This document shows positions 28,465 through 48,027 of a DNA stretch of 64,000 nucleotides, in pieces. The stretch's first letter is position 1. Every line of letters starts with the position of its first letter. The notes beneath the pieces were generated by a model, which was not told the DNA's origin, did no database searches, and worked only from the letters and a program-made list of their open reading frames with translations. The DNA lies in contig CABZFH010000004.1 in the NCBI GenBank assembly GCA_902524895.1, positions 66,987 to 130,986 on the forward strand, given 5' to 3'. Origin of the DNA: an uncultured Alphaproteobacteria bacterium (GTDB lineage: Bacteria > Pseudomonadota > Alphaproteobacteria > Methylaequorales > Methylaequoraceae). The translations under genes were made by a program, and so were the position numbers.

Positions 28465-29445
28465 TTAATTTTGAGTATTAATTACTTTTATAAAAATTTC
28501 AGCATACTTATTTAATTTCTGCAAACCAACACCATTGAGTCTACTAAACTCATCATGAGTTTTTGGCTTATGAAGCACCATCTGATGCAAAGTTGCATCG
28601 GAAAAAATTATATATGCTGGAACTCTAAGTTCTTTGGCTAATTTTAACCGCATTGACTTTAAATCAGTTAACAAATTTCTGTCGCTTTCAATCATTTCAT
28701 TATTTAAAATATCTTTCTTAAACTTTTTTTCTTTGTGAGGTTTTTTTTCATCAGTTCTTTTATAAAAATAATCTTCCTCCCCCTTAAGTATTTTTTCTCC
28801 ACTTGGAGTAATTTCGATTGCACCATATTTTTGTATATTAATTCTTAAATTATCAGAAGAAACTAATTGACGTATAAAGTTAGTCCAAAACTCTTTGCTA
28901 GCTGATCTTCCTACACCAAAAGTTTTTATTCTGTCGTGACCTCTTTGCTTGATTTTAGAATTACCTACACCTCTGAGTATATCAATAATATGATTAGAAC
29001 CAAAGCTTTGTCCTGTTCTATAAATTGCAGACATTGCCATTTGAGCATATTCAGTACCTTCAATCATTCGTGGAGGATTAGTACAATTATCACACCTACC
29101 ACAAGGTTCACATTTTTCTCTAAAATATGAAAGTAATGTCTGTTTTCTGCATGTAGCTGAATCACAATAAGTCATCAACGAATCTAAACGTTTAATTTCT
29201 TTAATTTTAAATGTTTCAGAGGCCTCACTGTCATATATCCATTTTCTTCTTTGAAATAAATCCTGAAGACCGAATATCAGCAAAGTATCAGAATCAATGC
29301 CATCCCTTCCCGCTCTTCCAATTTCTTGATAAAAGTTTTCCATGCTGCCTGGCAAACTAGTATGGGCTACAAATCTTACATTAGATTTATCTATACCCAT
29401 TCCAAAAGCTATTGTGGCACAAATTACAATATTATCCTCACTCAT
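28465..29445 (-). pseudogene. recQ: recQ lacking its 5' half (helicase C-terminal lobe, zinc/RQC and HRDC regions retained)
   Basis: It starts inside helicase motif V-VI: ICATIAFGMGIDKSNVRFVAHTSLPGSMENFYQEIGRAGRDG. Next come the Cys cluster CRKQ...CEPCGRCDNC and the HRDC-like end FSDATLHQMV. Motifs I-IV (about 290 aa) are absent. Confidence 0.85.
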
Positions 29446-32681: not shown

Positions 32682-32695
32682 AATAGTATTTAGAT

Positions 32696-34282
32696 ATGAA
32701 ATTTTGGTTTAAAATAATTAAAGATGCTGATGGGATACTAACTCTTTTAGGTTTATCTTTTGTAATAATAACTATGGGTCTGTTAAGTCCATTATTTATA
32801 ATTCAAATTTTTAATAGATACATTACATTTGGCTTAGAAGGTACGTTATTTTTTCTCATAACAGGAGCTTTGATTGTTGCAATTATAGAGTATATATTTA
32901 GAAATTTAAGGCATTCCTTTTGTGCTCGTATCATAGTGCATCCTATAAAACAATTAAAACTTACAATATCTAATTTTTACTTTTATAATTCAAATAATAA
33001 TAATAAAAACAATAATATAATTGATTTAATTGATCTAAAAAATAATGTTTTTCAAACTTTAAATCCTATCAATCAATCAAACGTTTTGGACTTTCTTTTT
33101 GCTGTAATGATTTTAATTATTCTTTTTGTATTAAATGTAAAATTGGCGTTTATTTTTTTAATTTTTTTTATGTTAATTTTTTTAATCCAGGTTTTAATTT
33201 TAAGGTTTAAACTGCAACGTAGTTTAAATAGAAAAGATGATTTAATTTTTTTTTCTGATTTAACGTTTAAATCTGAATATTTAAAGATATTAAATAACTT
33301 CAAATTTATCGGTGGAAATTTATCATTAATTGTGAAAAATCAACTGGATAGCTTAAAACAAATAGCTATTACATCAAGTAATCATATTAATTTTAATCAT
33401 TTTATAATCATACTTAATTCTGTGTTGATTATAGGTGCGGGAAGTTATTTTGTAGTTCAAGGAGATTTAGATATAGGAACTTTAATTGGTTTCAATATTT
33501 TTTCTTCACGCGCGTTACAAATAAGTATTAATGCTCAAAATTCATATTATAACTTTGAAAAAATTAGTAAATATTTTGATTTTACTTCAAATTTCTTGAA
33601 ATCTTACGACAAAAAAAAGAATTTTATTAAATTAAACAATGACAGATTCATAATAAATTTAGATAATTTAAAGCCAAGAGATGCTTCAGAGTCTCCAAAT
33701 CTGATCAAAAATTTTTCCATGGTTGCTAATCCTGGAGAGATAACAAACATTTCTGGTCCAAATAGTTCTGGAAAAACCCTTTTATGCAAATTAATTTTAG
33801 GTTTGGAGAGCTCATATGGTGGAGAGATAAAAATCAATAATTTTGATCTAGAAAAATTGTCATTGACTTGGTGGAGAAGCATAATTGGTTATGTGCCTCA
33901 AAATCAGTTATGTCTCAACACATCTATTATTGACAATATAGTCATTAATAATGAAAAAATTTCAGAAGAAAAAATTTTGAATAATTTGAAGGTTTATGGT
34001 TTTACTAAAATGCTTAGAAATGCAAATCTATCAATAAATTCTAAACTTTCGAGTAATATTTCTCCTGGAATTCACAAAAGAATTCATTATGCAAGAGTTT
34101 TAATGGCAGACAAAAAAATCATACTTATTGATGACCCTTTTGAAAACTTAGATTCAGAGGGAAAAAGTCATGTTATGAAGTATTTAAATTTATTTAAAAA
34201 TCAAAAAAAAACAGTTATTTGTTTTAGTAATGAAGAAGAAATTATAAAATTTTCAGATCAAAGGTATGAGGTATATGAATAA
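32696..34282 (+). CDS. T1SS-type ABC transporter (TMD plus NBD, no N-terminal C39 domain) with non-canonical catalytic motifs
   Basis: Walker A GPNSSGKT, Q-loop YVPQNQ, signature ISPGI instead of LSGGQ, Walker B ILIDDP (Asp where the catalytic Glu is expected), and H-loop position CFSNE (Asn for His). Confidence 0.75.
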   Translation: MKFWFKIIKDADGILTLLGLSFVIITMGLLSPLFIIQIFNRYITFGLEGTLFFLITGALIVAIIEYIFRNLRHSFCARIIVHPIKQLKLTISNFYFYNSNNNNKNNNIIDLIDLKNNVFQTLNPINQSNVLDFLFAVMILIILFVLNVKLAFIFLIFFMLIFLIQVLILRFKLQRSLNRKDDLIFFSDLTFKSEYLKILNNFKFIGGNLSLIVKNQLDSLKQIAITSSNHINFNHFIIILNSVLIIGAGSYFVVQGDLDIGTLIGFNIFSSRALQISINAQNSYYNFEKISKYFDFTSNFLKSYDKKKNFIKLNNDRFIINLDNLKPRDASESPNLIKNFSMVANPGEITNISGPNSSGKTLLCKLILGLESSYGGEIKINNFDLEKLSLTWWRSIIGYVPQNQLCLNTSIIDNIVINNEKISEEKILNNLKVYGFTKMLRNANLSINSKLSSNISPGIHKRIHYARVLMADKKIILIDDPFENLDSEGKSHVMKYLNLFKNQKKTVICFSNEEEIIKFSDQRYEVYE

Positions 34283-35513
34283 GGATTGGAAGAAATGGGA
34301 TTATAAGAATGAAATGAGTTTTTCATCTTCTAAAAAGAAAATAAAAGTTTTCAGTACAAAATTAAAGATTTCTATATTGATTTTTATAATTTTATTTTTT
34401 AGCTTAATTAATATAAAGATATTAGAAGTTTTAAGTTTGGCAGACGGAAAAGTAATTCCACAAGGAAGAATAAAATTTGTTCAACATTTAGAAGGTGGAA
34501 TTGTTGAGAAAATTTTAATTTCTGAAGGAGATAAAGTAAAAATGAATCAACCATTAATTACATTATCTAAGGCAAAGGCCTCCTCAGAATATGAAGAAAT
34601 AAATACAAGATTAAAATCTGTTGAGCTATCAATTTTAAGAATAAATGCTGAAAAAAAATATTTAAATGAAATTCCAAATGATAAAATTCAAAAATTTGAT
34701 TTAAACCGAGTTAAGTCTGAAAATCAATTTTTAATGAGTAGAAGAAAAAAAATCGAATCTGAAAAAGATACCATGAAAAAGAATATTTTAAATATTCAAA
34801 AGAGATATGATTTGACAAAAGAACAGACACAGATTAGCGAAGAATTATTAAAAGTAAAAGCCACTAATAGATTTAAGCATCTTGAATTATTACGAGAATT
34901 ATCTAATTTAGAGGGTCAACTTGATGAACAAAAAAACAAGTTACAGACTTTAAGTCTTAACTTTGTAGAACAACTAGAAAGTGAGATGAATGAACTTAAG
35001 AAAGAAAAGTCAGAACTCTTAAAAAGAATAACAAAATATACGGACAGTCTTGATAGAACTACATTAAAAAGTCCTGTCAACGGTGTTGTTAAGTTGATTT
35101 CTGTTAACTCTAAAGGTGCCATTGTAGCTCCGGGTGTCACTGTTGTAGAAATTGTACCTGAAAATGAAAAACTTATTATTGAGGCCCAACTACCATTGTC
35201 AGAAATTGGATTCATAAAAAATGGTTTGGATTGTATTATTAGGCTCAAATCTAGTGATGGTTCAAGATTTAAACCAATAAACGGAAAGGTTGTTTTTGTT
35301 GGTGCTGACAGAATCTCTAATCAAAACAATGATGGTTTTTACTTAGTAAAAATCGAAACCAAAGAAAATTCATTTTTAAAAGGAAATCAATCTTTTAACC
35401 TTTATTCTGGTGTGCCTGTGACAGCAGGAATAATTACTGGGAAAAGAAGTTTTGTTGATTATTTTTTTTCACCATTTAGAAAAAATATTAATTTTGCTCT
35501 TTCCGAAAGATAA
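34266..35513 (+). CDS. HlyD-family membrane fusion protein (T1SS)
   Basis: One N-terminal TM, a long coiled coil and a C-terminal barrel with SGVPVTAGIITGKRS. It overlaps the ABC gene by 17 nt. Confidence 0.8.
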   Translation: MRYMNKDWKKWDYKNEMSFSSSKKKIKVFSTKLKISILIFIILFFSLINIKILEVLSLADGKVIPQGRIKFVQHLEGGIVEKILISEGDKVKMNQPLITLSKAKASSEYEEINTRLKSVELSILRINAEKKYLNEIPNDKIQKFDLNRVKSENQFLMSRRKKIESEKDTMKKNILNIQKRYDLTKEQTQISEELLKVKATNRFKHLELLRELSNLEGQLDEQKNKLQTLSLNFVEQLESEMNELKKEKSELLKRITKYTDSLDRTTLKSPVNGVVKLISVNSKGAIVAPGVTVVEIVPENEKLIIEAQLPLSEIGFIKNGLDCIIRLKSSDGSRFKPINGKVVFVGADRISNQNNDGFYLVKIETKENSFLKGNQSFNLYSGVPVTAGIITGKRSFVDYFFSPFRKNINFALSER

Positions 35514-35816: not shown

Positions 35817-36168
35817 TTTCTACTCTTTTTAAAACATCTTGTGGTATATAAGTAGCTACTCTGTCTAACTTACTCATCCACATGATTCCTTTTCCAGGTG
35901 TGTCTAAATCTCCTGAGAGATACATTGATTCGAAAACTCTATTAGATTGTTCTTTTGAGACAATTATTCTAATCACCTCTTTTTGTTCATCAATTGTGAC
36001 TCCTATAAGTCCCAGCCTATCTCTAATTCCAGTACCTTTTGCATAGTTAATTGTCGCACCTTGAGCCCCAACCGCACTCGCTGCTTTTACGATTTTATCT
36101 GCATTTCCACTTTCGACTACACATGTAATTAAATAAACATCAGATAAATATGTAATTTGTCTAGCCAT
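35803..36168 (-). CDS. PII-family (GlnB-like fold) regulatory protein
   Basis: LITCVVESGNADKIVKAASAVGAQGATINYAKGTGIRDRLG...KEVIRIIV is PII-like. It overlaps both neighbours. Confidence 0.55.
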   Translation of the reverse strand: MARQITYLSDVYLITCVVESGNADKIVKAASAVGAQGATINYAKGTGIRDRLGLIGVTIDEQKEVIRIIVSKEQSNRVFESMYLSGDLDTPGKGIMWMSKLDRVATYIPQDVLKRVENEKK

Positions 36169-37885
36169 TAGTTTCTCCTTTTTGTCTTAGTTTTATGAAT
36201 ATACCCATGATCAGTACAGCTAATATAGGACAAATACTTGCCATTGACAAAATACCAAATCCCTCGGTAGCAGAAACAGCATTTCCTAATCCTAACCCCA
36301 TTGCCAATACTAATGGTACAGTGACAGGTCCAGTTGTTACTCCTGCGCTATCCCATGCAACATTCACAAATTCTTCTGTAGAAAAATATGTCAAAATAAT
36401 TGCAGTCAAATAAAGAGGTATTAATAACATTGCAAGATCAAAATTAAAAATTATCTTTCCAACGCCTAGTGCAATTCCAAAAGCTACACCACTTGCAACA
36501 CTATACATCAACATTGCTTTTCTAAACGCACCATTTGTTAGATCTTGTACCGTTGCGCCTAATGCATTTAAAGCTGGTTCAGCTAATGTTGATCCAAATC
36601 CAAGTATCCAGGCGAATATTATAACAATTGAAAGTCCTAATGACTTGTTATAAATAGGCGAGATATCACTAGAATCAATTTTCATAAATGCTGCAGGTAA
36701 AATATCACCTGCTTGACCTCCTATTGCTCCTAATCCATAGGTCAAACCCAAGTTAAATATGCACATACCAATTATTGATAATGTTAATCCATAACCAGTT
36801 ACTAAATTATTAGGTAATTTAGACTTAAGAATAATGAATAAGACAAACATTAAAAAAATTACTAGTGGAAGAATTGATTGAATTCCTGCAAGAATTTCAA
36901 TAAATGGTGTTTGATTCCATTTTGATTCTTCAAGTCCTTGAAACGTGGAATTAGAAGTAGTCAACAAAGCCGCATCAATAATTTCCTGAGGTGATGATTG
37001 AAGCGAAACAAAAATTGATAAAATTAAAACTGCTATTATAGGAAATATAGATGCTAGAGTTACAACACCAAAACCAGATAGTGATGAATCACCTTTTCCT
37101 GCAGAAGCAGCTATACCGATTCCTAAAGATAAGACAAGAGGAACAGTTACCGGACCAGTTGTAACTGCTCCGCAATCCCATGCTAAACCAAGAATTGTTC
37201 TCAAATCTGGATTATTCCATGCATATAAAGTTAAAAGAATGGCAGGTATGAGAGAAAGATATATCATTGGTTTTAACGACCACCCTCTGACAAACCTCAA
37301 AGTTCCAAGAACTGCAGCTAAACCAACTCCAGCTCCAACCATTAGAACTAGTGGTTGGGTCCAGTTATTTAAAAGCTCATACAAATATGGCGCTTTTGCT
37401 ACATCAATTCCCCCGCCAAATGCCTGTAATGCCCCAATTGCGGGTTCAGCGAAGGTGACACCAACTCCTAATATTGCAATTATTAAAAGCACAACCCCCA
37501 TAGAAGCTTTTTTTGGTAAGTTATCACCAATTATTGTGCCAAATGGCATAAGACCAACTTTGAGTCCTTCCATAAAAACTGCAAGTCCAATAATAACTGC
37601 AACTAATCCTAAACCTATAATTGTTGCTTCTTGAATCGGTTGCCTTAATATTAGTAACTGAAAAATAAATAAGTAGGCTGCTAATGGCATCACAGCTTTT
37701 ATCTGTTCAAATATTCTTGATGAAGTATATGGTATTAATAAATTTAAGGCTTTAAAAAACCCTATATTTATCTTTTCCGGTTTTAGAGCTAATTTTCCAG
37801 ATTTTTCTGGTTTTGGGGTAAGTATGTTATAACTTATTGATCTATGTCTAATCTCAGATTCATGAACAAAATCAGAATACTTCAT
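36161..37885 (-). CDS. DUF1538-family integral membrane protein (two internal repeats)
   Basis: The internal duplication is visible: AWDCGAVTTGPVTVPLVLSLGIGIA and AWDSAGVTTGPVTVPLVLAMGLGLG. More than 12 TM helices. Confidence 0.6.
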   Translation of the reverse strand: MKYSDFVHESEIRHRSISYNILTPKPEKSGKLALKPEKINIGFFKALNLLIPYTSSRIFEQIKAVMPLAAYLFIFQLLILRQPIQEATIIGLGLVAVIIGLAVFMEGLKVGLMPFGTIIGDNLPKKASMGVVLLIIAILGVGVTFAEPAIGALQAFGGGIDVAKAPYLYELLNNWTQPLVLMVGAGVGLAAVLGTLRFVRGWSLKPMIYLSLIPAILLTLYAWNNPDLRTILGLAWDCGAVTTGPVTVPLVLSLGIGIAASAGKGDSSLSGFGVVTLASIFPIIAVLILSIFVSLQSSPQEIIDAALLTTSNSTFQGLEESKWNQTPFIEILAGIQSILPLVIFLMFVLFIILKSKLPNNLVTGYGLTLSIIGMCIFNLGLTYGLGAIGGQAGDILPAAFMKIDSSDISPIYNKSLGLSIVIIFAWILGFGSTLAEPALNALGATVQDLTNGAFRKAMLMYSVASGVAFGIALGVGKIIFNFDLAMLLIPLYLTAIILTYFSTEEFVNVAWDSAGVTTGPVTVPLVLAMGLGLGNAVSATEGFGILSMASICPILAVLIMGIFIKLRQKGETNG

Positions 37886-37954: not shown

Positions 37955-38392
37955 CTATGAATAGATCATTTGTGCTAGCCTATGGTGAAGTTGTAAAGCT
38001 AATGCTCTAATGACATTTGGTTCATCCTTGACTAATTTTTTAAGATTATCACTTGAAATTGGAAGATTGTAATCTGAGTTTTTTGCTAACTCAATTGCAA
38101 ACTCTTTAATTAGTTTGTGGAGTTCAAGGCTCGAAGATAACAACAATTCATTTAAGGCAGAAGGTTTTATCTCAACAATTTCAGCAGGTGTAACAGCCTT
38201 TATACTAGCTTTTCTTTCTTCACCAAGAATAAGAGATAACTCTCCAAAAATTTCTCCCTCTGAAATTTTTCCAACCTTATCTCCATCCCTTTCAACATTG
38301 AATGATCCAGAAATAACCAGATAAGCTGCATCACCCTTGTCACCTTGTTTAAAAACAAATTGATCTGGTAAAATTTTTATTTTTGTTGTCAT
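37955..38392 (-). CDS. Stand-alone cyclic-nucleotide-binding domain protein
   Basis: CAP-effector-domain signature GEIFGELSLILGEERKASIKA. Confidence 0.8.
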   Translation of the reverse strand: MTTKIKILPDQFVFKQGDKGDAAYLVISGSFNVERDGDKVGKISEGEIFGELSLILGEERKASIKAVTPAEIVEIKPSALNELLLSSSLELHKLIKEFAIELAKNSDYNLPISSDNLKKLVKDEPNVIRALALQLHHRLAQMIYS

Positions 38393-38398
38393 TATTAA

Positions 38399-40756
38399 TC
38401 ATTTAGTAGTAGCAACAAAAACACCATCCCATATTTCAGGAGGGGGGTAGTTTTTGAAATCTATAATTCGTTTCTGAATAATACTATAATACTCTTTCAT
38501 TACTCCCTTCAATAGGTTTTCATTATTTTTTATAATTTTTAACGCTTCGTCCCAATTCTTATTAAAATAAAAATTTAAAAGATTTTCATGTTGTTCTTTA
38601 AAAAATTTAAATTCATTTTTATTTCTTAGTTCACTGTCTCCAAGAAGAGTAAATATAGAAACAGCTTCTTTTTTGCCTTTAACTGCGATTTTATCTAATT
38701 GCAAAGTAGCAAACTCGTGCTGAACTTCTGTATTGGTTTCTTCTCCGATAACTGTTTTTACTCCGTAACCTTTTGATTGTCCTTCAAGTCTTGATGCTAA
38801 ATTAACAGAGTCGCCTAATACTGAATAATCAAATCTTTGATCAGAGCCCATATTACCTACTACACATTCTCCTGTATTAATACCAATCCCAATTTTTAAT
38901 TCTAGATATTCTATTTTTGCAACTTTAGCTTCTTTTTCCCTCTGTTCATTTAATTTTTTTAGTTCTTCATGCATCTCCAAAGTTGCCGTACATGCTTGAG
39001 ATTCATGATCTTTTGAATTAAGTGGTGCATTCCAAAATGCCATTATACAGTCTCCCATGTATTTATCTATTGTTCCATTGTGAGAAATAATTTTGTCTGT
39101 CAAAGGTGTTAAAAATCTATTTATCAATTTTGTAAGTCCTTGAGGATCAGATTTAAATAATTCAGAAATTGCTGTAAACCCTCTTACATCACAAAAGAGA
39201 AATGTCATTTTTTTAGTTTCACCCCCCAATTTTAGCTTATTTGGATCTGCTGCTAATTGTTCTACGAGTGCTGGTGATAAGTATTGAGAAAAAGCACCTC
39301 GAATTTGTTTTTTTTCGTTTGCATCTCTCAAATAATTTGCAAATGTAGTTGAAAAATAAATCATAAAACTCGATAGAGCAGCAAAAGTTGGATCGAAAAG
39401 TATTTTTTTATCAATATATAAACTTAAACTTATATAAAACGCTGCTCCAACGATTATACAAAAAAAAGAAATATTTAAAATAGGACCAAATTTGAATGAC
39501 GAAAATGTAAAAATTAAACCTAAAATTACAATGAACATTGATTCATAAAAAGGCATATTTACTCCTGATTTTAAAAACGGAGCTCCAATGATTTCTACTT
39601 TCTCAGCTTTTTTTATTGCCTCATTGGCGTCTAAACCTAACTTGAGTGAATTATCGTAAATTTCTTGAGATTTTTTTTTACTTGAATAATATAAAATTGC
39701 AGAAATAATTGTATCGATTAGATTAGCGTGAATTTCAACACCAGGCATTCTTTTGTCAACTGATGTGGGTTTAATGTCTTTAAGCCCAATTGCTGAAGTG
39801 CCTAAAATTCCTAGTTTTCCTTTGAGTCTTTCAGCCCCAACTTTGCCGCTAATTATATCAGAAGCGCTTACATAATATCTAGGGTTTTCAACATTTTGTT
39901 TGTCTGAGCTACCGTAATGAACCCAGACCCTTCCTTCAGCATCAGTTGGTATTGAGGCTTTACCAATTGCTTTTGTTTGAATTATAATTTCTTCAATTCC
40001 ATTAATGCCAGTTTTGCTTGCAATACTATTTCCTTGAAATGCAACTCGAATCATTTCTAGGGCTAAAGTTGGTCTAATTTTATTATCAATATTTGAAATT
40101 ATTGGTATTCTTCGAATAATTCCGTCAGGTTCTTCTGACAAAGAGATAATACCGGCTCCAGAACTAGCTTTTTCGAATGAAGGAACATTGGCAAGAAGGC
40201 CGGGGTATTTTTTTAACCATTTTTTTTTGGGATCTTCACCCAAAATCGCTTTAACAGAGGTATCTCTAACATCATTTCTTTTTGAATCTCCAATTTCATT
40301 CATAGCTGAATGACCTAAAACTACCGGTATCGTATTCATAGCACTAACGGCTATTTCCTCATTTGAAGGAAGTTCTAAAAGTTTTTTATGTAAATCGGGG
40401 TAATTATCTTTTAGGTTTTTTGCAATAAACTCTGGTGAGGTTCTATCCTTTTCAGAAAACAAAACATCTAAGCCAATAACTAACATACCAGCTTCACCAG
40501 ATTTTTTAAAAAGTTCTGCAAGGATATTTCTTGACCAAGGCCATTGACCAATTTCTTTTAGAGATTTTTCATCAATATCTATAATAACAGAGTAAGTATT
40601 TCCATTTGTTTCTCTTGGCTCATGCCTTTGCAGTACATCAAAATATTTTAAACGAAAAATTTCAATTAATTCTGGATCCGAAATTCTAATTCCACCGAAC
40701 AAAAAAGCTGAAAGAATCGCAAATAAACTTACAAGTGATCTAAATTTTAGTTTCAT
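38399..40756 (-). CDS. CHASE2-sensor class III adenylate/guanylate cyclase
   Basis: N-terminal TM plus a large extracytoplasmic domain and a TM cluster (CHASE2 architecture). Cyclase core: FLFCDVRGFTAISE, YMGDCIMAFWNAP, GINTGECVVGNMGS, YSVLGDSVNLASRLEG. Confidence 0.85.
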   Translation of the reverse strand: MKLKFRSLVSLFAILSAFLFGGIRISDPELIEIFRLKYFDVLQRHEPRETNGNTYSVIIDIDEKSLKEIGQWPWSRNILAELFKKSGEAGMLVIGLDVLFSEKDRTSPEFIAKNLKDNYPDLHKKLLELPSNEEIAVSAMNTIPVVLGHSAMNEIGDSKRNDVRDTSVKAILGEDPKKKWLKKYPGLLANVPSFEKASSGAGIISLSEEPDGIIRRIPIISNIDNKIRPTLALEMIRVAFQGNSIASKTGINGIEEIIIQTKAIGKASIPTDAEGRVWVHYGSSDKQNVENPRYYVSASDIISGKVGAERLKGKLGILGTSAIGLKDIKPTSVDKRMPGVEIHANLIDTIISAILYYSSKKKSQEIYDNSLKLGLDANEAIKKAEKVEIIGAPFLKSGVNMPFYESMFIVILGLIFTFSSFKFGPILNISFFCIIVGAAFYISLSLYIDKKILFDPTFAALSSFMIYFSTTFANYLRDANEKKQIRGAFSQYLSPALVEQLAADPNKLKLGGETKKMTFLFCDVRGFTAISELFKSDPQGLTKLINRFLTPLTDKIISHNGTIDKYMGDCIMAFWNAPLNSKDHESQACTATLEMHEELKKLNEQREKEAKVAKIEYLELKIGIGINTGECVVGNMGSDQRFDYSVLGDSVNLASRLEGQSKGYGVKTVIGEETNTEVQHEFATLQLDKIAVKGKKEAVSIFTLLGDSELRNKNEFKFFKEQHENLLNFYFNKNWDEALKIIKNNENLLKGVMKEYYSIIQKRIIDFKNYPPPEIWDGVFVATTK

Positions 40757-40762
40757 GAAAAA

Positions 40763-42478
40763 TTATGGTTCTGCAAAACTGTTACCTAATGTTCTTACTA
40801 AAGGATAAATAAAGTAGGTGATCAATCGTCTTTTTCCAACTTTAATCTTTCCCGATACTTTCATTCCTGGCATAATATTAAATCCTGGTGGTGTATCTTT
40901 TAGTAGATTCTCTGTTATTTCTGCTCTTGCTCTGTAGTAGTTTCCTGTTTGTCCGTCAACATTTTCATTTACTGTGTCTGCGGATATATAATTTATCTTT
41001 CCTTTCAGTTCTCCGTGTTTTTGAGCCGGAAGCGCACTTAATTGAATTTTTACAGATGTATCCGGAATTAATTTACTGATGTCAGAGGGATCAACATCAA
41101 AAACAGCAAGAAGTTCAACTCCAACAGGGACTAGAGTGACTACAGCATTTCCAGGATTAATAACTGCTCCCGGATAAAGTGAATGCAGATCAAGGACCAT
41201 TCCATCTGACGGTGCTTTGACAATTACATCCGTTTGCTGTCTATTAAGTTTTTTTATGTCTTCAACTAAAGCCATCTTCTGATCTTCAAGAGTTACAAGC
41301 TCATCATTAATTCCACCAAACCATTGACTCATATATTCTTCCTTACTGGATTTAAGTTCACTTAATTTGTTTGTTGTTTTGGTGTATTCTTTTTCCAAGG
41401 AAAGCGTTTTGTTTCTTTCACCAAGTACTTGTGCTTCAGGTACTAAGTCAAGTTTAAATAGGCTTTTTTTTGATGCCTCCAGTTGTTTTTGTATCTCTAA
41501 TTGTTCTGAAATAAACCTCAAATCGTCTTCTGTAGAAGCTATTTGTTTTTTTAAAGAAGCAGATTTAGCTAAAAATTGTTCTTTTTTATCTTTAAATATA
41601 GTGTTTTGTCTGCTATCGATTGGGTTTCCAACATTTTTATTATTTCTTAAATTTGACTGTTTCTTTAGCCTGTCTATTTTGGCCTCTATAACATTAAGTT
41701 GATAGTTTAATTTTCTTTTATCGGCCTTTTGAAGAATATCATCAAATATTACAAGAGATTCGCCTTCAGTAATCTTTTGTCCTTTTTTAACTAACACTTC
41801 TCTTACTACTGACTTATAATTTGATTGTACTTCAATGTTCGGTACAATTGTGGTAATTTTACCGGATGCTGACACTGATGTATCAATTACAGAAATCGAG
41901 CTCCACAGAATTAGGAAGAGAATTAAAAAACCTAAGGAAAAAATAGTATATTTCACTGGTTGGGGAACCTTTCTGCCTTTAATTCTTTCAATATCGGAAT
42001 CATATTCCTCTAATAATTCTCTCATTAAATCATTTTTTTTTCTTTCCTCTATTTGATCAGCAGTTAAATTATTTGAAATTTGTTCTTTATCTTCTTCTTC
42101 ATTTGAGGATTCAAAAGCATCAACTGTGAGTTTTTCATTGGCATTTCTTGCATAACCTGCAAGTTGCTGCATCATATTAAATGCTGTTTGAGGCGAGTTT
42201 TTTAAAAAAACTAAAAGCGCATTTTGATCTATCTCTTTTACTATAGTTTCTTTGGTAGCTCTTGCCATAGCACTTCTAGGTTGCCTATCAATTAGTGCCA
42301 TTTCACCAAACAAGGCACCTTTTTTTAACTTTGCAAGAGTTATATATTCGTCACCATTAAATTTGCAAATCTCAATTTCTCCACTAGAAACTTGATATGC
42401 AAAATCTCCAACTTCCCCCTCACGAAAAAGAACATCACCTGCTGCCAAACTTCTTAATTTAGGCTTATTTTCAGTCAT
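40763..42478 (-). CDS. HlyD-family membrane fusion protein with an N-terminal cNMP-binding domain
   Basis: Residues 1-~115 read GDVLFREGEVGDFAYQV...GALFGEMALIDRQPRSAMARA (CAP effector domain). One TM helix, a coiled coil and a HlyD barrel (MPGMKVSGKIKVGKRR) follow. Confidence 0.8.
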   Translation of the reverse strand: MTENKPKLRSLAAGDVLFREGEVGDFAYQVSSGEIEICKFNGDEYITLAKLKKGALFGEMALIDRQPRSAMARATKETIVKEIDQNALLVFLKNSPQTAFNMMQQLAGYARNANEKLTVDAFESSNEEEDKEQISNNLTADQIEERKKNDLMRELLEEYDSDIERIKGRKVPQPVKYTIFSLGFLILFLILWSSISVIDTSVSASGKITTIVPNIEVQSNYKSVVREVLVKKGQKITEGESLVIFDDILQKADKRKLNYQLNVIEAKIDRLKKQSNLRNNKNVGNPIDSRQNTIFKDKKEQFLAKSASLKKQIASTEDDLRFISEQLEIQKQLEASKKSLFKLDLVPEAQVLGERNKTLSLEKEYTKTTNKLSELKSSKEEYMSQWFGGINDELVTLEDQKMALVEDIKKLNRQQTDVIVKAPSDGMVLDLHSLYPGAVINPGNAVVTLVPVGVELLAVFDVDPSDISKLIPDTSVKIQLSALPAQKHGELKGKINYISADTVNENVDGQTGNYYRARAEITENLLKDTPPGFNIMPGMKVSGKIKVGKRRLITYFIYPLVRTLGNSFAEP

Positions 42479-42481
42479 AAA

Positions 42482-44641
42482 TTAAATCGCTTTTTTAATC
42501 TTTTGTTGATGAACACCTAACATATCGATCTGCTTATAATACGTATCTCTAAAAAAGCCACTTTGATTTAGTAATTCTTCAAAACCTCCTTCTTGCGAAA
42601 TGGTAGATTTTTCAAGTACAAAAATTTTATTACAAAGTCGAAGGTGCCATAATCTACTAGAGACAATTATAACTGTTCTTCCAACTGCGATATCCTCAAG
42701 TGCGTCATATAATTTTATTTCACTATCTACATCAAAACCACTGATAGCATCGTCAAATATTAGAATTCTTGGATTTCTGATAAGTGCTCTAGCTATTTGA
42801 AGTTTTTGTCTCATTCCTGTAGATAAATTTGCAGCATTTTCCTCTAAAACTGTTTCATATCCTTCAACGAAGTTCTCAATATCTTCATGAGCAGAAACCT
42901 TCTTTGCAGCCCAAATTATTCTATCCATAGAAGAATTTGGCATTGGTCTAGCAATATTCTCTCTTATTGTGCCTGGAAAAAAATAACTACTATCATCGAC
43001 AAGAGAAACTTGAGAACGTAGATGACTTAAATCTAAGAGTCTCAAATCACTGTTGTCGTATGAAATCATTCCAGACTTCGGTCTATACAAACCAACTAAT
43101 AATTTTGTAAGAGTACTCTTACCACACCCACTTTTGCCAGTTAATCCAATAACTTGTCTGGGATTAATATTTAAATTTATATTCTCAAGTATCTTGGTTT
43201 CATCATCATATCCAAAATCTAGATTTTTAACCGAAATTTGTCCCATTAGTTGAGGCTTTTGTCCTTTTGAAGTATTATCAGATGGGGCATCTATTATGCT
43301 TGATAGAATTTTAACTGAGTTGAGTAGTTTTCCTATTTCAGTTTTTAAAGTTACTAATGAAATAATCGGTGTAGAAACTCTAGATGCAAGCATATTAAAT
43401 CCTACAAGTATTCCAGCTGATAATCCACCAGCAAAAACTAAATGAACACCAACAAAAATAACCATTGCTGTCATTAGTTGATTAATAGTTGATGTCACAT
43501 TCTGAAGAATTGCATTTTTATGCTGAAGTTTTTCAGAAGAAATAATATAGTTTGCTTCAATATCTCTCCAAGCATCCTTAATACTTGGCTCGAGAGCTAA
43601 TCCTTTTACATTTTCTATTCCATGTACTGCAATTGAAACAAATTCTTGTCTTTTTGACTCGTCTTTACTCATTTCTATTGAAGCATCCCTTGATTTTTTT
43701 GAAAAATACATTGAGCTCAATGCTCCAGCAATGCTAAAAACCAAAACAACTGAAAATAAAACAGGACTATAAAAAAAAAGAATTGGAACAAAGACAACTA
43801 ATGCGATTGAATCTAATGCAGTTGAAAAAATTTTTTGTGTTAACAAATTTTTAATTAAACTAATTTGAGAAGTAAACTTTGCAAACATGTCCGATTCTTT
43901 GTTGTATCTTTGCATTGGTAGAGATAAAAGTTTATCAAACGCTTTTATAGACAACTTTGCTTCAACTTTTTGAGATAAGAAATCTAGTAAGTATAATTTT
44001 AGATATCCTAAAACCCCGTTGCACAGATATGCTACAACTACTCCGGAAGTAATAACATACAAAGTTGAATAAGCTTCATAATTTACAACTTTATCTAAGA
44101 CTAACATCATAAAAACTGCAGGAATCACTGCAAAAATATTTAAAATTAACGCCACCACAAGTAGTTGAACGATTACAGAACGATTTCTCAAACTTTCACC
44201 TATTAACCAAGATATTGAAAATTCGCTTGTTTCTTCAAAAAGTTTTAATTTAGGCTTAAGTAATATTAAATTTCCTAACCAAGCTTTTTTAAGTTCTTCA
44301 ATTGAAATTTGTTGAGGTTTTGGGTTTGGATTACCAGCATCTAAACATAACAAAAATTTTTCATCATTTTTTTTCAGCATTCTTAATCCAATAATATAAC
44401 GTCCATTCTTAAGCTTTAATATTTGTTGTTTTTTTTTTAACAATTCAGCTAATTCTTCAGCTTTGACTTGAACAGATTTGGCTTTTAGATCAAATGCATT
44501 TGCTAACTGACACATTTCTTCAGAGGTTAACTCTCTATTTTCAATTTGAAATTTTTCAGGTATATCATTGGGACCTACATGAATACCATATTGTCTTGAT
44601 ATTAAAATAATTGATTTTTGCGATCCTCTCAAAACAGTCAT
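42482..44641 (-). CDS. HlyB-type T1SS ABC transporter with an N-terminal C39-like domain lacking the catalytic Cys; non-canonical NBD motifs
   Basis: The C39-like N-terminus (~130 aa) has no Cys at the expected N-terminal position. Six TM helices. Walker A GKSGCGKST, Q-loop position LVDDSS (Asp for Gln), signature LSTGM, Walker B LIFDDA (Asp for Glu), H-loop position IVSSRL (Ser for His). Confidence 0.85.
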   Translation of the reverse strand: MTVLRGSQKSIILISRQYGIHVGPNDIPEKFQIENRELTSEEMCQLANAFDLKAKSVQVKAEELAELLKKKQQILKLKNGRYIIGLRMLKKNDEKFLLCLDAGNPNPKPQQISIEELKKAWLGNLILLKPKLKLFEETSEFSISWLIGESLRNRSVIVQLLVVALILNIFAVIPAVFMMLVLDKVVNYEAYSTLYVITSGVVVAYLCNGVLGYLKLYLLDFLSQKVEAKLSIKAFDKLLSLPMQRYNKESDMFAKFTSQISLIKNLLTQKIFSTALDSIALVVFVPILFFYSPVLFSVVLVFSIAGALSSMYFSKKSRDASIEMSKDESKRQEFVSIAVHGIENVKGLALEPSIKDAWRDIEANYIISSEKLQHKNAILQNVTSTINQLMTAMVIFVGVHLVFAGGLSAGILVGFNMLASRVSTPIISLVTLKTEIGKLLNSVKILSSIIDAPSDNTSKGQKPQLMGQISVKNLDFGYDDETKILENINLNINPRQVIGLTGKSGCGKSTLTKLLVGLYRPKSGMISYDNSDLRLLDLSHLRSQVSLVDDSSYFFPGTIRENIARPMPNSSMDRIIWAAKKVSAHEDIENFVEGYETVLEENAANLSTGMRQKLQIARALIRNPRILIFDDAISGFDVDSEIKLYDALEDIAVGRTVIIVSSRLWHLRLCNKIFVLEKSTISQEGGFEELLNQSGFFRDTYYKQIDMLGVHQQKIKKAI

Positions 44642-44670: not shown

Positions 44671-44707
44671 AAAAAAAACCCTCTAAAAATTTTAGAGGGT
44701 TTTTTTT
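44671..44707 (-). terminator. Strong symmetric hairpin flanked by A and T runs (bidirectional rho-independent terminator or attenuator) between the substrate gene and the ABC gene
   Basis: AAAAAAAA-CCCTCTAAAA-A-TTTTAGAGGG-TTTTTTTT. Confidence 0.7.
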
Positions 44708-44724: not shown

Positions 44725-45735
44725 TTAAGCCATTCCTGACGTATCGTCATCTGTAGAAGGATCAGGGATAGCAGCATCACCAGCAGGGACGTCAGGTTGG
44801 TCTACTGAAGCGGGGTCATAACCGGGCTCAGGCATTGCTTCTGCAGAACTTTGATCCATGTAAGAGGATGCTTCATCCATTTCTGGGGGATAATCCACAG
44901 GTGCTGGTCCATCATCAAGGCCTCCGTCGTCTGGACCACTTGCTGCCATCATCGGATCTGTTGGCGGCATATCTGGACCCATTTCTGGTGGTGGTGTAGC
45001 AGGACCAAATTCAGGTCCCCCTGGCTCACCAACACTAGCAGGATCTCCACCTGGCGGCGGCATGTCCCCTGGTCCTGCCATATCACCTGGAGGATAGTCC
45101 ATCGGTGCTGGTCCGTCATCGTAACCACCTTCACCTGGACCTTCAGGCGGTTGTGGCGCCATTCCAGTAGCTGGGTCAATAGCTGGACCTGCCATATCAC
45201 CTGGAGGCATATCTGCTGGGCCTGCCATATCACCTGGACCTTCAGGCGGTTGTGGCGCCATTCCAGTATCTGGATCAATAGCTGGACCTGCCATATCACC
45301 TGGAGGCATATCTGCTGGGCCTGCCATATCACCTGGAGGAGGCATATCACCTTCCGTACCTGGAGGTGGCATATCCGCTGGTCCCATATCAGTCATACTT
45401 GATGGACCATCCATCCCAGTTGGGGGGCCATCCATTGGACCATATTCTGCTTCAAAAGCACTATCTACAGAGGTTCCAGCTGCATCAAAAGCTTCCATTG
45501 GATCCATGCTAGGGTTAGCTTCCATAGCAGAAGTAAAACCTTCAGTGGCTGAAGTAACCATTGTATCAACCATACCAGAATCAGCTCCCATATCTGTCAT
45601 TACGGCACCTGCGGCTTCAGTAGCTGCACTTAATGCTTCCGCAGGAGATCCACCTGAATCAAGTACTGCAGTGTAAGCATCCTGGGCTGCAGATCCAGCT
45701 GAATCTGCCATATTATCATATTCATATGGTGGCAT
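44725..45735 (-). CDS. Extremely acidic Pro/Gly/Asp/Met/Ala-rich repetitive protein with no Lys, Arg, His, Cys or Trp; putative T1SS cargo
   Basis: 336-aa ORF with an AAGGAAA RBS. Third codon positions remain A/T-biased like the host. It sits between tolC and the ABC/MFP genes. There is no signal peptide. Confidence 0.7.
   Translation of the reverse strand: MPPYEYDNMADSAGSAAQDAYTAVLDSGGSPAEALSAATEAAGAVMTDMGADSGMVDTMVTSATEGFTSAMEANPSMDPMEAFDAAGTSVDSAFEAEYGPMDGPPTGMDGPSSMTDMGPADMPPPGTEGDMPPPGDMAGPADMPPGDMAGPAIDPDTGMAPQPPEGPGDMAGPADMPPGDMAGPAIDPATGMAPQPPEGPGEGGYDDGPAPMDYPPGDMAGPGDMPPPGGDPASVGEPGGPEFGPATPPPEMGPDMPPTDPMMAASGPDDGGLDDGPAPVDYPPEMDEASSYMDQSSAEAMPEPGYDPASVDQPDVPAGDAAIPDPSTDDDTSGMA
45132..45329 (-). 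repeat. Two tandem copies of a 99-bp (33-aa) unit, 97/99 identical
   Basis: Unit 45132-45230 versus 45231-45329 differs at two positions only. It encodes GPGDMAGPADMPPGDMAGPAIDP(D/A)TGMAPQPPE. Confidence 0.9.
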
Positions 45736-45830
45736 ATTAATTTCCTTATTTTAAAAGTTTATTTGCTATTACATTTTGCTTTTACATTATTTGATGATAA
45801 AAAACTTTTCAATTTGGTTCAAGTTAAAAA

Positions 45831-47162
45831 CTAAATTTTGATTTTTAAATAATTAAAAGTTAACAAGCCACAAGCTTGCAGTAAATCAAAAGAAGAATTA
45901 ATTAATTGAAATTTTGCATTAACTAAATTTGATTCTGCATCGGTTAATGCTTGTTGAGCACTTAATATATCAAATGTAGTTCTTGTTCCAACGCCAGCTT
46001 CTTGTTCTACTCCTTCAAATGCTACTAGATTTGATTCAACAGAGGCTTCAAGGGCTTTAATGCTAGACTTTAAACTTTCAATTTTTTTCCAGGCACTTTT
46101 GACTTCATGTTGAAGATTAATTTTTTTACTTTCAATTTTTCTTTGTGAGATAATTGCAGTATTCTTTGATTTTTCAAGATTAAAAAAATTATGCCCTTTA
46201 TTAAATAAAGGCATGCTTAGGTTTGCTGTTACCTCAAAAGAATCTTTTCTTTCAATTGTTCTTGAACTTTCCATAGTTTTTCCGTAAGAGCCACTAATTG
46301 AGAACTCAGGAAAAAAGTTTAAAGTGTTTGATCGAATTTGAATTTTAGAGTTTATAAGTTCAAACCTTAACTTATTAAGATCAGGATTATTTAAAAAAGC
46401 CAATTCTAGAGATTCATTTAAAGATGTTGGAAGATTTGGTATTTTTCCAAATTTCAACCAATCTATCGGATTATTTGATGTAATCTTTTCTTTGTTCTTT
46501 TTTTTCCAGTTTATATCTGGTTCTCTTCCAACAACGGCTACGTATTCAGAAATAGCAATTTCTAAATTATTTTCTGCCTCTATTCTCTCAGATATTGCTT
46601 TTTCAAGGCTAGCTTTAGCAAGAAAAACATCTGTTTTCGTTACGCTTTTAAATTCAAATCTCTGTTCTGTGGCAACTAATTTTGTATTTAAGGTAGTTTC
46701 ATTTTTGATAGCTACGTCCAGTAAAAACCTTTCTTTTAAAACCGTGTAAAATGCTTTTGACGCTCTTAAAAGAACATCTTGAATTATTGATTTATCAGCA
46801 AATCTTTGAGCTTTTAAATTGTTTTTTGCAGATTCAAAAGATAAAAATTTGCTAGATCCAAGAGGTTGACTTATGTCTATATCGATAGTGGATGGGTTAA
46901 GTGCGTCATAACCGTAGTTAGATGTATCAGGAAATGATTCAGTGATTTTTCTACCCTGAGACATCGATAATTCAACTGATGGTAAAAAATCTGTTTTTGA
47001 GATAACAACTTCTTTTATCTTATTTTTTAAATCTAATTTACTTTTGTTTATGTCGGGATAGTACTTATAACTATCTATTAGAGTATCTTCAAGGGTTTCA
47101 GAAGATAAATTTGTGTCGAGAGTTATTAATAAAAAAAGTAATGAAAAATAATAAACTATCAT
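45831..47162 (-). CDS. tolC: TolC-family outer-membrane channel
   Basis: Signal peptide and two OEP repeats. The C-terminal GTRTTFDILSAQQAL...LL motif is typical of TolC. Confidence 0.85.
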   Translation of the reverse strand: MIVYYFSLLFLLITLDTNLSSETLEDTLIDSYKYYPDINKSKLDLKNKIKEVVISKTDFLPSVELSMSQGRKITESFPDTSNYGYDALNPSTIDIDISQPLGSSKFLSFESAKNNLKAQRFADKSIIQDVLLRASKAFYTVLKERFLLDVAIKNETTLNTKLVATEQRFEFKSVTKTDVFLAKASLEKAISERIEAENNLEIAISEYVAVVGREPDINWKKKNKEKITSNNPIDWLKFGKIPNLPTSLNESLELAFLNNPDLNKLRFELINSKIQIRSNTLNFFPEFSISGSYGKTMESSRTIERKDSFEVTANLSMPLFNKGHNFFNLEKSKNTAIISQRKIESKKINLQHEVKSAWKKIESLKSSIKALEASVESNLVAFEGVEQEAGVGTRTTFDILSAQQALTDAESNLVNAKFQLINSSFDLLQACGLLTFNYLKIKI

Positions 47163-47270: not shown

Positions 47271-47347
<77 letters not shown>

Positions 47348-47409: not shown

Positions 47410-48027
47410 ATGTTTTTTTATCGATTTATAAGAATTGATACTTGTATTTTTTTTGGGTTGTTATTTTTCCCCTTTTTATTGTTTTGTAATTATGATAAAG
47501 CAATTGAATTATATAAAAATAAGGAATATCCAGAATCTATATTAGAATTTAAAAGGTTTATAGATTCTGAAATAGAACATGAGAAAAAAAAAGATGCTAT
47601 GTACAATCTCGCCATTATTTATGATTTTGGCTTAGGAATAAAAGAAAACAAAGATAAGGCCGTTAAATGGTATAAAAAAGCATCAAATTTAAATCATAAA
47701 ATTGCTCAATTCAATCTAGCATGGATGTTTTACAATGGTGAGAAGCTTGAGAAAAATAACTTTGAGGCTTTCAATTATTATCTAAGATCTGCTAATCAGG
47801 GTTATAATAAAGCACAATTTAATTTAGCTAATTTATATTTTGCAGGCGAGGGGACAATAAAAGATTATGTGGAATCATATAAATGGTTTAAAATTTCTTC
47901 TTTAAATGGAATCAAGGAAAGTGAAAATTTTTTATCTACATTAATCAGAAAACTTCATCCCGAAGAATTAACCTTAGCAAATCAGAAAGTTGACGACTGG
48001 ATAAAAAGCTACAAACAAAATCAATAA
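47410..48027 (+). CDS. Sel1-repeat (TPR-like) protein
   Basis: Repeated KAVKWYKKASNLNHKIAQFNLAWMFYNGEK / AFNYYLRSANQGYNKAQFNLANLYFAGEG units, plus an N-terminal hydrophobic segment. Confidence 0.75.
   Translation: MFFYRFIRIDTCIFFGLLFFPFLLFCNYDKAIELYKNKEYPESILEFKRFIDSEIEHEKKKDAMYNLAIIYDFGLGIKENKDKAVKWYKKASNLNHKIAQFNLAWMFYNGEKLEKNNFEAFNYYLRSANQGYNKAQFNLANLYFAGEGTIKDYVESYKWFKISSLNGIKESENFLSTLIRKLHPEELTLANQKVDDWIKSYKQNQ

Follow-up and report, generated by a model that had tools for sequence, protein, structure and literature searches.

A putative non-RTX type I secretion cargo free of lysine and arginine, encoded within a cyclic-nucleotide-associated export cassette of an uncultured alphaproteobacterium

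Type I secretion systems (T1SSs) whose ATP-binding cassette (ABC) exporters carry a C39-like domain are paired with repeats-in-toxin (RTX) cargos of more than 50 kDa, and vice versa (PMC8277102, a review). RTX domains are disordered in the apo state, and their calcium-driven folding favors export (PMC4642704). The model of this class is HlyA/HlyB/HlyD/TolC, while HasA is a small, acidic, fully folded non-RTX cargo with an uncleaved C-terminal signal, and LapA combines a folded N-terminal module, a long repetitive region, and a C-terminal signal with control by a nucleotide second messenger. A further group, the NHLP/Nif11-type bacteriocin export cassettes (TIGR03794, TIGR03796, and TIGR03797), is associated with NCBIfam TIGR03896, which already records proteins binding cyclic nucleotide monophosphates (cNMPs) beside bacteriocin-type exporters. 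Here, we report a 336-amino-acid (aa) open reading frame (ORF) that we read, with a probability of about 0.6, as the dedicated non-RTX cargo of a cNMP-controlled HlyB-type T1SS, its secretion being deduced from sequence and setting. It lies in a 64,000-nucleotide stretch (the window) of an uncultured Alphaproteobacteria bacterium (GenBank assembly GCA_902524895.1, contig CABZFH010000004.1, positions 66,987 to 130,986, forward strand).

The protein is predicted to have three parts, namely, a folded four-helix module of ~100 aa, a polyanionic repeat tail of ~180 aa without Lys or Arg, and a conserved acidic C-terminal region. The cargo gene and its elements are as follows (window coordinates):

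44725-45735, minus strand: cargo gene, ATG start, 336 aa, about 33 kDa
45436-45735, minus strand: N-terminal module, residues 1-100, predicted four-helix bundle of two helical hairpins
44887-45435, minus strand: tail, residues 101-283, Pro/Gly/Asp/Met repeats without confident predicted structure
45131-45337, minus strand: 99-bp tandem repeat, 2.1 copies, 97/99 identical, 33-aa unit GDMAGPADMPPGDMAGPAIDP[DA]TGMAPQPPEGP
44725-44886, minus strand: C-terminal region, residues 284-336 and stop, with the MDEASSYMDQSSAEA motif and the acidic end ...DDDTSGMA; candidate uncleaved T1SS signal
45743-45822, minus strand: upstream signals (consensus matches only), promoter-like TTGAAC-17-TATCAT at 45822-45794 and Shine-Dalgarno AAGGA at 45747-45743
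44671-44707, minus strand: intrinsic terminator hairpin and T-run between the cargo and ABC genes, folding energy (dG) −20 kcal/mol, z = −6.8

The protein is built from 15 amino acid types, with Lys, Arg, His, Cys, and Trp all absent, and is dominated by Pro (19.3%), Ala (14.6%), Gly (14.3%), Asp (14.0%), and Met (10.1%), followed by Ser (6.5%), Glu (5.7%), and Thr (5.1%). Its 66 Asp and Glu residues, against no Lys or Arg, give a charge of about −67 at pH 8. Across 19 other long ORFs of the window, Lys averages 9.3% and Arg 3.5%, and the five missing residues together account for 15.7%, from which the probability of finding none of them in 336 residues is ~1e-25. Side chains contribute 0.02 nitrogen atoms per residue, versus 0.33 in neighboring proteins, an extreme economy of nitrogen in a protein that would be lost to the cell once exported. 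The G+C content of the gene is 52.4% (peak of 58% in a 300-nucleotide [nt] profile), versus 29.1% for the window. By codon position (GC1/GC2/GC3), it is 0.72/0.60/0.25 against a background of 0.40/0.31/0.19, and with the 34 ATG codons removed, GC3 drops to 0.168, below background. The spike therefore reflects which amino acids are encoded, with codon usage remaining native. The gene is thus a native one, and a foreign origin of the spike was rejected, with GC3 at or below background. An earlier note, made from the sequence alone, had described a 15-residue alphabet, a sharp G+C spike, and a composition imposed through amino acids on a native gene, all of which exact counting upheld. Among the Pro codons (19% proline), 35 of 65 are CCA; a tRNA-Pro(UGG) gene is located at 47271-47347 (plus strand), with about 110 bp separating it from the start of tolC and 1.5 kb from the cargo gene, a proximity that may be coincidence.

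Homologs were sought among 5.8 billion proteins, by a profile search of 1.84 billion cluster representatives, and by a metagenome scan, which yielded 17 relatives, 112 clusters, and a further 18 loci, respectively (loci are numbered with L and proteins with P). About 30 loci from marine metagenomes and single cells keep the frame over its full length, start to stop, and the length variation among homologs consists of in-frame indels within the repeat region. Over the N-terminal 112 codons, the ratio of nonsynonymous to synonymous substitution rates (dN/dS) was 0.04 versus L007 (single-cell genome AG-337-B08, labeled “uncultured Alphaproteobacteria bacterium”), 0.27 versus L001, and 0.20 versus L006. 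Related genes reproduce the compositional spike (G+C, 48 to 53% within loci of 31 to 37%; GC3, 0.25 to 0.28). Judged by this conservation, the cargo gene is real and under purifying selection. AG-337-B08 was the sole species representative in which a homolog was found, and it is absent from the HIMB59 genome tables consulted; the 29% G+C of the window is compatible with SAR11 as well as with AEGEAN-169/HIMB59 (PMC10308909, PMC10734472).

Lys and Arg are both absent from 15 of the 17 first homologs (the remainder being frameshifted entries and a protein that has one Lys), from 11 further complete homologs of the metagenome scan (187 to 375 aa), and from several distant members whose Pro and Met contents are lower. 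In the sequences compared, the lack of Lys and Arg is thus a general trait of the family, and Met-richness is a trait of a subfamily. Two loci carry variants in the same cassette position: L029 (4950-5276) encodes a 102-aa helical module only, which contains Lys and has neither tail nor C-terminal region, and L023 (541-1158) encodes a 200-aa protein that contains both Lys and Arg and whose tail is not rich in Pro. Since these variants contain basic residues, the avoidance of Lys and Arg accompanies the acidic repeat tail.

The cargo gene stands between tolC and the ABC exporter and membrane fusion protein (MFP) genes, all on the minus strand, as the earlier note had placed it. The remaining genes of the cassette, in the order in which they are read with the cargo gene second, are as follows:

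45831-47162, minus strand: TolC-family outer membrane channel (PF02321, TIGR01844)
42482-44641, minus strand: HlyB-type ABC exporter with a degenerate C39-like domain (PF03412, ABC_membrane, ABC_tran, TIGR01846)
40763-42478, minus strand: HlyD-family MFP with an N-terminal cytoplasmic cNMP-binding domain (PF00027 at residues 9-94, HlyD_3, TIGR01843)
38399-40756, minus strand: CHASE2 sensor fused to a class III nucleotidyl cyclase (PF05226 and PF00211)
37955-38392, minus strand: stand-alone 145-aa cyclic-nucleotide-binding protein (PF00027; weak TIGR03896 match)

The order TolC, cargo, ABC exporter, cNMP-domain MFP, and cyclase is shared by the window, by L001 to L007, and by all 12 metagenome loci with usable flanks; the CHASE2 cyclase is syntenic in L001, L005, L007, L017, L018, and L029. 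A more distant locus, L008, has the alternative order ABC, cNMP/MFP, cargo. The cargo gene adjoins a HlyB-like ABC gene in every sufficiently flanked locus and lies upstream of it in all but one. The earlier note had proposed a search for homologs beside T1SS genes; such homologs were found, with ABC/MFP adjacency in all flanked loci and two gene orders.

The machinery resembles HlyB/HlyD/TolC. The best Protein Data Bank (PDB) sequence match of the ABC exporter is Escherichia coli HlyB (1e-104, residues 13-696), although its score against TIGR01846 (502 bits) is below the cutoff of 725. Its C39 domain (PF03412, 4.9e-9, residues 13-131), aligned with that of HlyB, has Gly at the catalytic Cys/Tyr9 position (alignment extrapolated), Tyr at His83, and Lys at Trp77. 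With the catalytic residues replaced, the domain is therefore non-catalytic, as in HlyB, and it was degenerate in related exporters wherever it was read. The cargo gene, like hlyA, lies directly upstream of the ABC gene, with its own terminator between the two; a hairpin and T-run with different stem sequences occupy the equivalent position in L001, L005, and L006, and the hairpin of L007 is nearly identical to that of the window. The cargo also shares with HlyA its acidity, the lack of Cys and of an N-terminal signal, and a largely unfolded (predicted) state. It departs from HlyA-type cargos, which exceed 50 kDa, in its mass of 33 kDa, in lacking GGxGxDxUx repeats, and in containing no Lys or Arg, and the system as a whole departs from HlyA-type T1SSs in its cNMP-binding MFP, in the CHASE2 cyclase and further cNMP-binding protein of the operon, and in having no acyltransferase.

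In the MFP, the FGEMAL...PRSA phosphate-binding cassette is intact and is followed by a hydrophobic segment and then by the periplasmic HlyD part. The MFP matched 555 clusters at E ≤ 1e-10, and the fusion of cNMP-binding and HlyD domains occurred in all of the 120 matches listed; these clusters come from marine data, on contigs of up to 1.5 Mb, and one homolog is labeled “Rickettsiales bacterium.” The cNMP-fused MFP is thus common in ocean metagenomes. Its N-terminal domain and the 145-aa protein both match TIGR03896, a bacteriocin-type transport-associated family, weakly. The cyclic-nucleotide layer, like a second RTX-type T1SS described below, was not mentioned in the earlier note. We found no description, in the literature that could be searched, of a cNMP-binding-domain/MFP fusion or of a CHASE2 cyclase in a T1SS operon, and nothing relevant on T1SS cargo of SAR11.

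A second line of evidence comes from bacteriocin-type cassettes. Two proteins, P0095 (E = 4e-6) and P0114 (E = 3e-5), matched the helical-module profile among 1.84 billion proteins, with pairwise support as well. Both begin with textbook double-glycine leaders (LSDDALDQVVGG and ISDEDLDNVVGG, respectively) and carry the module without a tail. Beside P0095 lie genes for an NHLP-type HlyD protein (TIGR03794), an ABC exporter whose C39 peptidase is active and retains the catalytic Cys (QMEAVECGAACL; TIGR03796 at 921 bits, which exceeds the cutoff), a second ABC exporter (TIGR03797), and a TIGR03896-type cNMP-binding protein; P0114 has the same cNMP-binding type and an ABC gene as neighbors. The helical module thus appears to be exported by two kinds of ABC machine, both tied to cNMP-binding proteins. 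Of the indirect arguments for the window protein as a cargo, with the helical module as its payload, these relatives provide the strongest. Unlike the NHLP/Nif11-type cargos, the window protein has no LSxxELxxIxGG double-glycine leader, and its exporter has no catalytic Cys, so that its export must rely on the C terminus. In the related NHLP-type cassettes (L011, 2-6652, and L009, 1-3443), the cargo after cleavage is an acidic, helical protein of ~145 aa, unusually large for such systems, and not a short modified peptide.

The C-terminal region is accordingly the candidate export signal. Its MDEASSYMDQSSAEA motif is recognizable in distant relatives (MDEMHTHMDDAAAHG, MAHMDEAMSDHMDHAAAED, and others), and at the very end, family members share a run of acidic residues and then small or hydrophobic ones (DDDTSGMA in the window; DDVV, DDIV, DEVV, VDVA, and DGMA in relatives). 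Known T1SS C termini are enriched in Asp, Thr, and Ser, depleted in Lys, Arg, Glu, and Pro, and end in the pair [FLI][VAI] (PMC8861453). The last 20 residues of the window protein contain six Asp, four Ser or Thr, no Lys or Arg, and four Pro, with MA as the final pair; the family fits these statistics only in part. At the other end, the N terminus (MPPYEYDNMADSAGSAAQDAY) has neither a basic n-region nor a hydrophobic h-region (direct reading; no dedicated predictor was run), and this reading, in a protein without Lys or Arg, agrees with the earlier statement that no signal peptide is present. The cargo resembles HasA in being small, acidic, and non-RTX with an uncleaved C-terminal signal (a candidate here), and relatives likewise end in acidic and then hydrophobic residues. 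It is unlike HasA in that HasD-type exporters have no N-terminal appendage and HasA is fully folded and has basic residues; the two share no similarity in sequence or fold. Together, the conserved ABC/MFP adjacency, the C-terminal region, and the double-glycine-leader relatives support the earlier proposal of a likely T1SS cargo without RTX repeats.

The N-terminal module was modeled with AlphaFold2 (15-sequence alignment) as helices at residues 3-26, 31-48, 53-73, and 79-98, with a predicted local distance difference test score (pLDDT) of about 90. Within the family, no other part is as widely conserved (consensus AxxAFxxALxxGxxPxxAFxAAxxAA...GxPxE); the module is matched by most of the 112 clusters and is present in 2 to 7 copies in some relatives. 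The module had no Pfam or NCBIfam match, and 30 diverse members had no consistent Pfam match. A PDB sequence-profile search with the cargo protein returned no match at E ≤ 1, and Foldseek against the PDB gave generic four-helix bundles at E > 1 (best match, E = 1.7). The family is thus uncatalogued, and the locus would represent a T1SS that is novel in both its class of cargo and its layer of control.

Residues 100-336 had a block-mean pLDDT that was mostly below 50 and reached 65 at most, with no secondary structure. The earlier note had called the protein polyanionic and disordered; the charge agrees with the first of these, while disorder throughout does not hold, given the bundle predicted at residues 3-98. 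The tail (residues 101-283) comprises 51 Pro, 36 Gly, 34 Asp and Glu, and 21 Met. It contains the 99-bp tandem repeat, which the earlier note had already described as 97/99 identical, surrounded by shorter sub-repeats of 18 and 33 nt. Arrays differ by lineage, with 12 copies of GPPPEGDM in L017 and GPGPDGPMGPPPGDM arrays in L019 and L026. Alleles with near-identical N-terminal domains span 263 to 336 aa, which bears out the suggested expansion and contraction of repeats, although short-read assemblies of repeats are unreliable.

Within this variable tail, one linear motif is held constant. Two copies of GG[YL]DDGPAP[MV]DYPP are present (55-nt DNA repeat D5), and the 27-aa motif AIDPATGMAPQPPEGPGEGGYDDGPAP shows no residue difference between the window protein (45055-45182) and that of L005 (1390-1476), whose N-terminal domains share 35 to 36% identity. 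The codons of the motif differ by 16 synonymous and no nonsynonymous changes, which indicates strong purifying selection on a short linear sequence, that is, constraint rather than recent exchange; recent recombination with L005 as the source of the identity was rejected, because 16 of the 27 codons differ synonymously. The motif or its core, GG[YFL]DDGPAP, occurs in only some family members, and a protein-database search with a 44-aa motif gave a single, uninformative candidate. Many relatives carry one or two copies of an EF-loop-like DxDGDG or D[ML]DGDG sequence; the latter fits DxDxDG, which we take to be the calcium-loop pattern. The tail resembles apo-state RTX domains (CyaA RD) as a highly acidic, Gly/Asp-rich chain without confident predicted structure, with DxDGDG in relatives. 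It differs from them in having no beta-roll repeats, and at 28% proline, it is unlikely to fold even with calcium.

A mechanism consistent with these features can be proposed. The CHASE2 cyclase would sense an external cue, and its cNMP would permit export by binding to the MFP, at its cytoplasmic domain, and to the 145-aa protein. The protein, with no Sec/Tat signal, would be recognized through its C-terminal region and exported unfolded, C terminus first, through ABC-MFP-TolC. The acidic, proline-rich tail would substitute for RTX repeats, with charge repulsion and proline keeping it extended and soluble in the low-calcium cytosol and available for tethering by the C39-like domain. Outside, in seawater with 10 mM Ca and 50 mM Mg, the tail would bind cations and so favor one-way export, and the helical module would be delivered as the conserved payload. 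On this account, the whole protein is most likely a released or loosely cell-associated cation-binding polyanion carrying a helical payload.

Several points weigh against this account. The cargo has no PF00353 match and no GG.G.D motif (RTX family membership was rejected on both grounds), and at only 33 kDa, it breaks the pairing rule of PMC8277102. Both the four prolines near its end, where Pro is depleted in known T1SS C termini, and the MA terminus, which is not [FLI][VAI], are atypical of a C-terminal signal. A stably folded N-terminal bundle could stall export. The calcium hint comes from relatives, since DxDxDG is not present in the window protein, and we infer cNMP gating solely from a domain fusion and gene neighborhood.

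The first rival we consider unlikely, though it is the most probable of those weighed here. In this model, the protein would be a LapA-like filament retained at the surface, with the N-terminal bundle folding early and plugging TolC from the periplasmic side while the acidic tail forms a surface brush; the brush would affect adhesion, grazing, or phage access, and cNMP would control display, not release. The compact, confidently folded module directly before a long flexible linker is as expected of such a filament, as are C-terminus-first export by T1SSs and a tail whose length is hypervariable among near-identical alleles, which is typical of exposed surface structures. AAG tripeptides occur at residues 41-43 and 85-87, but AAG is expected by chance at 22% Ala, and EAAG and DAAG fall outside the (T/A/P)AA(G/V) consensus. 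No LapG-type protease or LapD-type receptor is encoded in the cassette or the syntenic loci (the rest of the genome was not searched), and the tail-less module behind a cleaved double-glycine leader in NHLP-type systems points to a released payload rather than a plug. LapA itself is thousands of residues long rather than 336, has adhesin domains, which the window protein does not, and is controlled by cyclic di-GMP through LapD rather than, as inferred from domains here, by cNMP through the MFP.

An extracellular Met/Asp metal ligand, in which Met thioethers would bind Cu(I), or carboxylates Cu(II), Fe(III), or Zn, and the protein would buffer or scavenge trace metals, seems improbable. Met-only Cu(I) sites are known in Ctr1 and Cus proteins, and proteins of the Met-motif class (Ctr1 Mets motifs, CusF/PcoE-like) use conserved clusters of MxM or MxxM as ligands, often together with His. 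Met makes up 10% of the protein versus 2% of the proteome, 15 of the 34 Met residues follow Asp or Glu, and three MxxM motifs occur at residues 46, 77, and 114; this enrichment is not mutational, because AT bias would favor Ile over Met. However, the Met positions of the folded module are occupied by Ala, Leu, Ile, Val, or Phe in relatives, so they are core hydrophobic residues there, and conserved Met ligands in that domain were rejected for this reason. Among family members, the share of Met varies between 0.3 and 14%, whereas acidity and the avoidance of Lys and Arg are constant; the window protein has no His or Cys, and no metal-homeostasis genes are found in the cassette. The Met-based metal binding suggested in the earlier note is weakened by these comparisons.

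We regard as very unlikely a third rival, in which the protein stays in the cytoplasm or periplasm as an accessory or regulator of the secretion system (an acidic chaperone, plug, or decoy at the C39-like or cNMP domain) while the real cargo is encoded elsewhere. The protein does break the rule that pairs C39-like exporters with RTX cargo, its secretion is deduced indirectly, and the L029 lineage retains the helical module with neither tail nor C terminus. Yet the gene occupies the canonical cargo position with its own terminator, family members retain the acidic C-terminal end, and the double-glycine-leader relatives are exporter substrates by construction. The sole other T1SS-type cargo in the window adjoins its own ABC/MFP pair: at 29748-35513 (plus strand), a second T1SS comprises a 977-aa FecR/RTX protein (29748-32681; PF00353, 2.7e-23), an ABC exporter of 528 aa that has no N-terminal appendage, and a HlyD-family MFP of 415 aa. 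As this system has its own RTX cargo, the RTX protein is accounted for as an alternative cargo. No TolC gene adjoins the second T1SS within the window, and the TolC at 45831-47162 may be shared by both sets.

A spurious ORF or wrong frame, with the G+C-rich repeat non-coding or coding in another frame, is next to excluded: long ORFs do exist in two other frames (183 aa on the plus strand and 133 aa on the minus strand, spurious ORFs that the earlier note had anticipated) and several relatives' database entries are partly translated in them, but the 44725-45735 frame alone is conserved from start to stop, with frame-preserving indels and strong purifying selection, and the alternative-frame stretches in those entries are rich in Trp, Arg, Cys, and His and come after obvious frameshifts inside the repeats. 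Another frame as the real product, which the earlier note had named as a refutation, thus did not hold. Gene calls of P0013, P0017, P0029, P0033, P0034, P0043, P0047, P0063, and others switch to a frame rich in Trp, Arg, Cys, His, and Leu inside the repeats, and the family is therefore under-counted and mis-translated in public catalogs.

If the ORF is a dedicated non-RTX cargo, as we prefer, it would be an exception to the rule that joins C39-like domains to large RTX proteins (PMC8277102) and could show what such a domain recognizes in an unfolded substrate. The cNMP-domain MFP and the CHASE2 cyclase in one operon suggest that a second messenger gates this T1SS by acting on the machine itself. 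Because the protein has no Lys or Arg, it yields no tryptic peptides; metagenomes, moreover, assemble the family badly and frequently mis-translate it, so that an exoprotein that could be abundant among marine bacterioplankton may be systematically overlooked. A wider proposal is tentative, and the odds are against it as a whole: streamlined marine Alphaproteobacteria would use a cNMP-gated T1SS to release, on cue, a basic-residue-free protein to which tryptic metaproteomics is blind and whose polyanionic, nitrogen-poor tail acts as a ligand of cations or trace metals or as a surface conditioner. This would be the first C39-like-domain T1SS with a non-RTX cargo, a proline-rich polyanion replacing the RTX beta-roll as the secretion-competence element.

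Other genes of the region were noted. Next to the second T1SS, a 326-aa ORF (28465-29445, minus strand) corresponds to RecQ in its C-terminal parts alone (the last stretch of Helicase_C, Zn-binding, RQC, and HRDC); no helicase-core ORF lies upstream of it, where the next gene is the RTX gene on the opposite strand, and the ORF may be what is left of a truncated recQ bordering an inserted secretion island. A DUF1538 membrane protein (36161-37885, minus strand) directly follows the cNMP-binding gene, as it does in L001 to L004, and may or may not belong to the cassette; in L001 (17679-19776), the DUF1538 gene is followed by that of a P-II-like protein. On the other side of the cassette lies the following:

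47410-48027, plus strand: Sel1-repeat protein (PF08238), divergently transcribed, beyond tRNA-Pro

This gene is conserved beside TolC in L001, L007, L014, L015, and L029.

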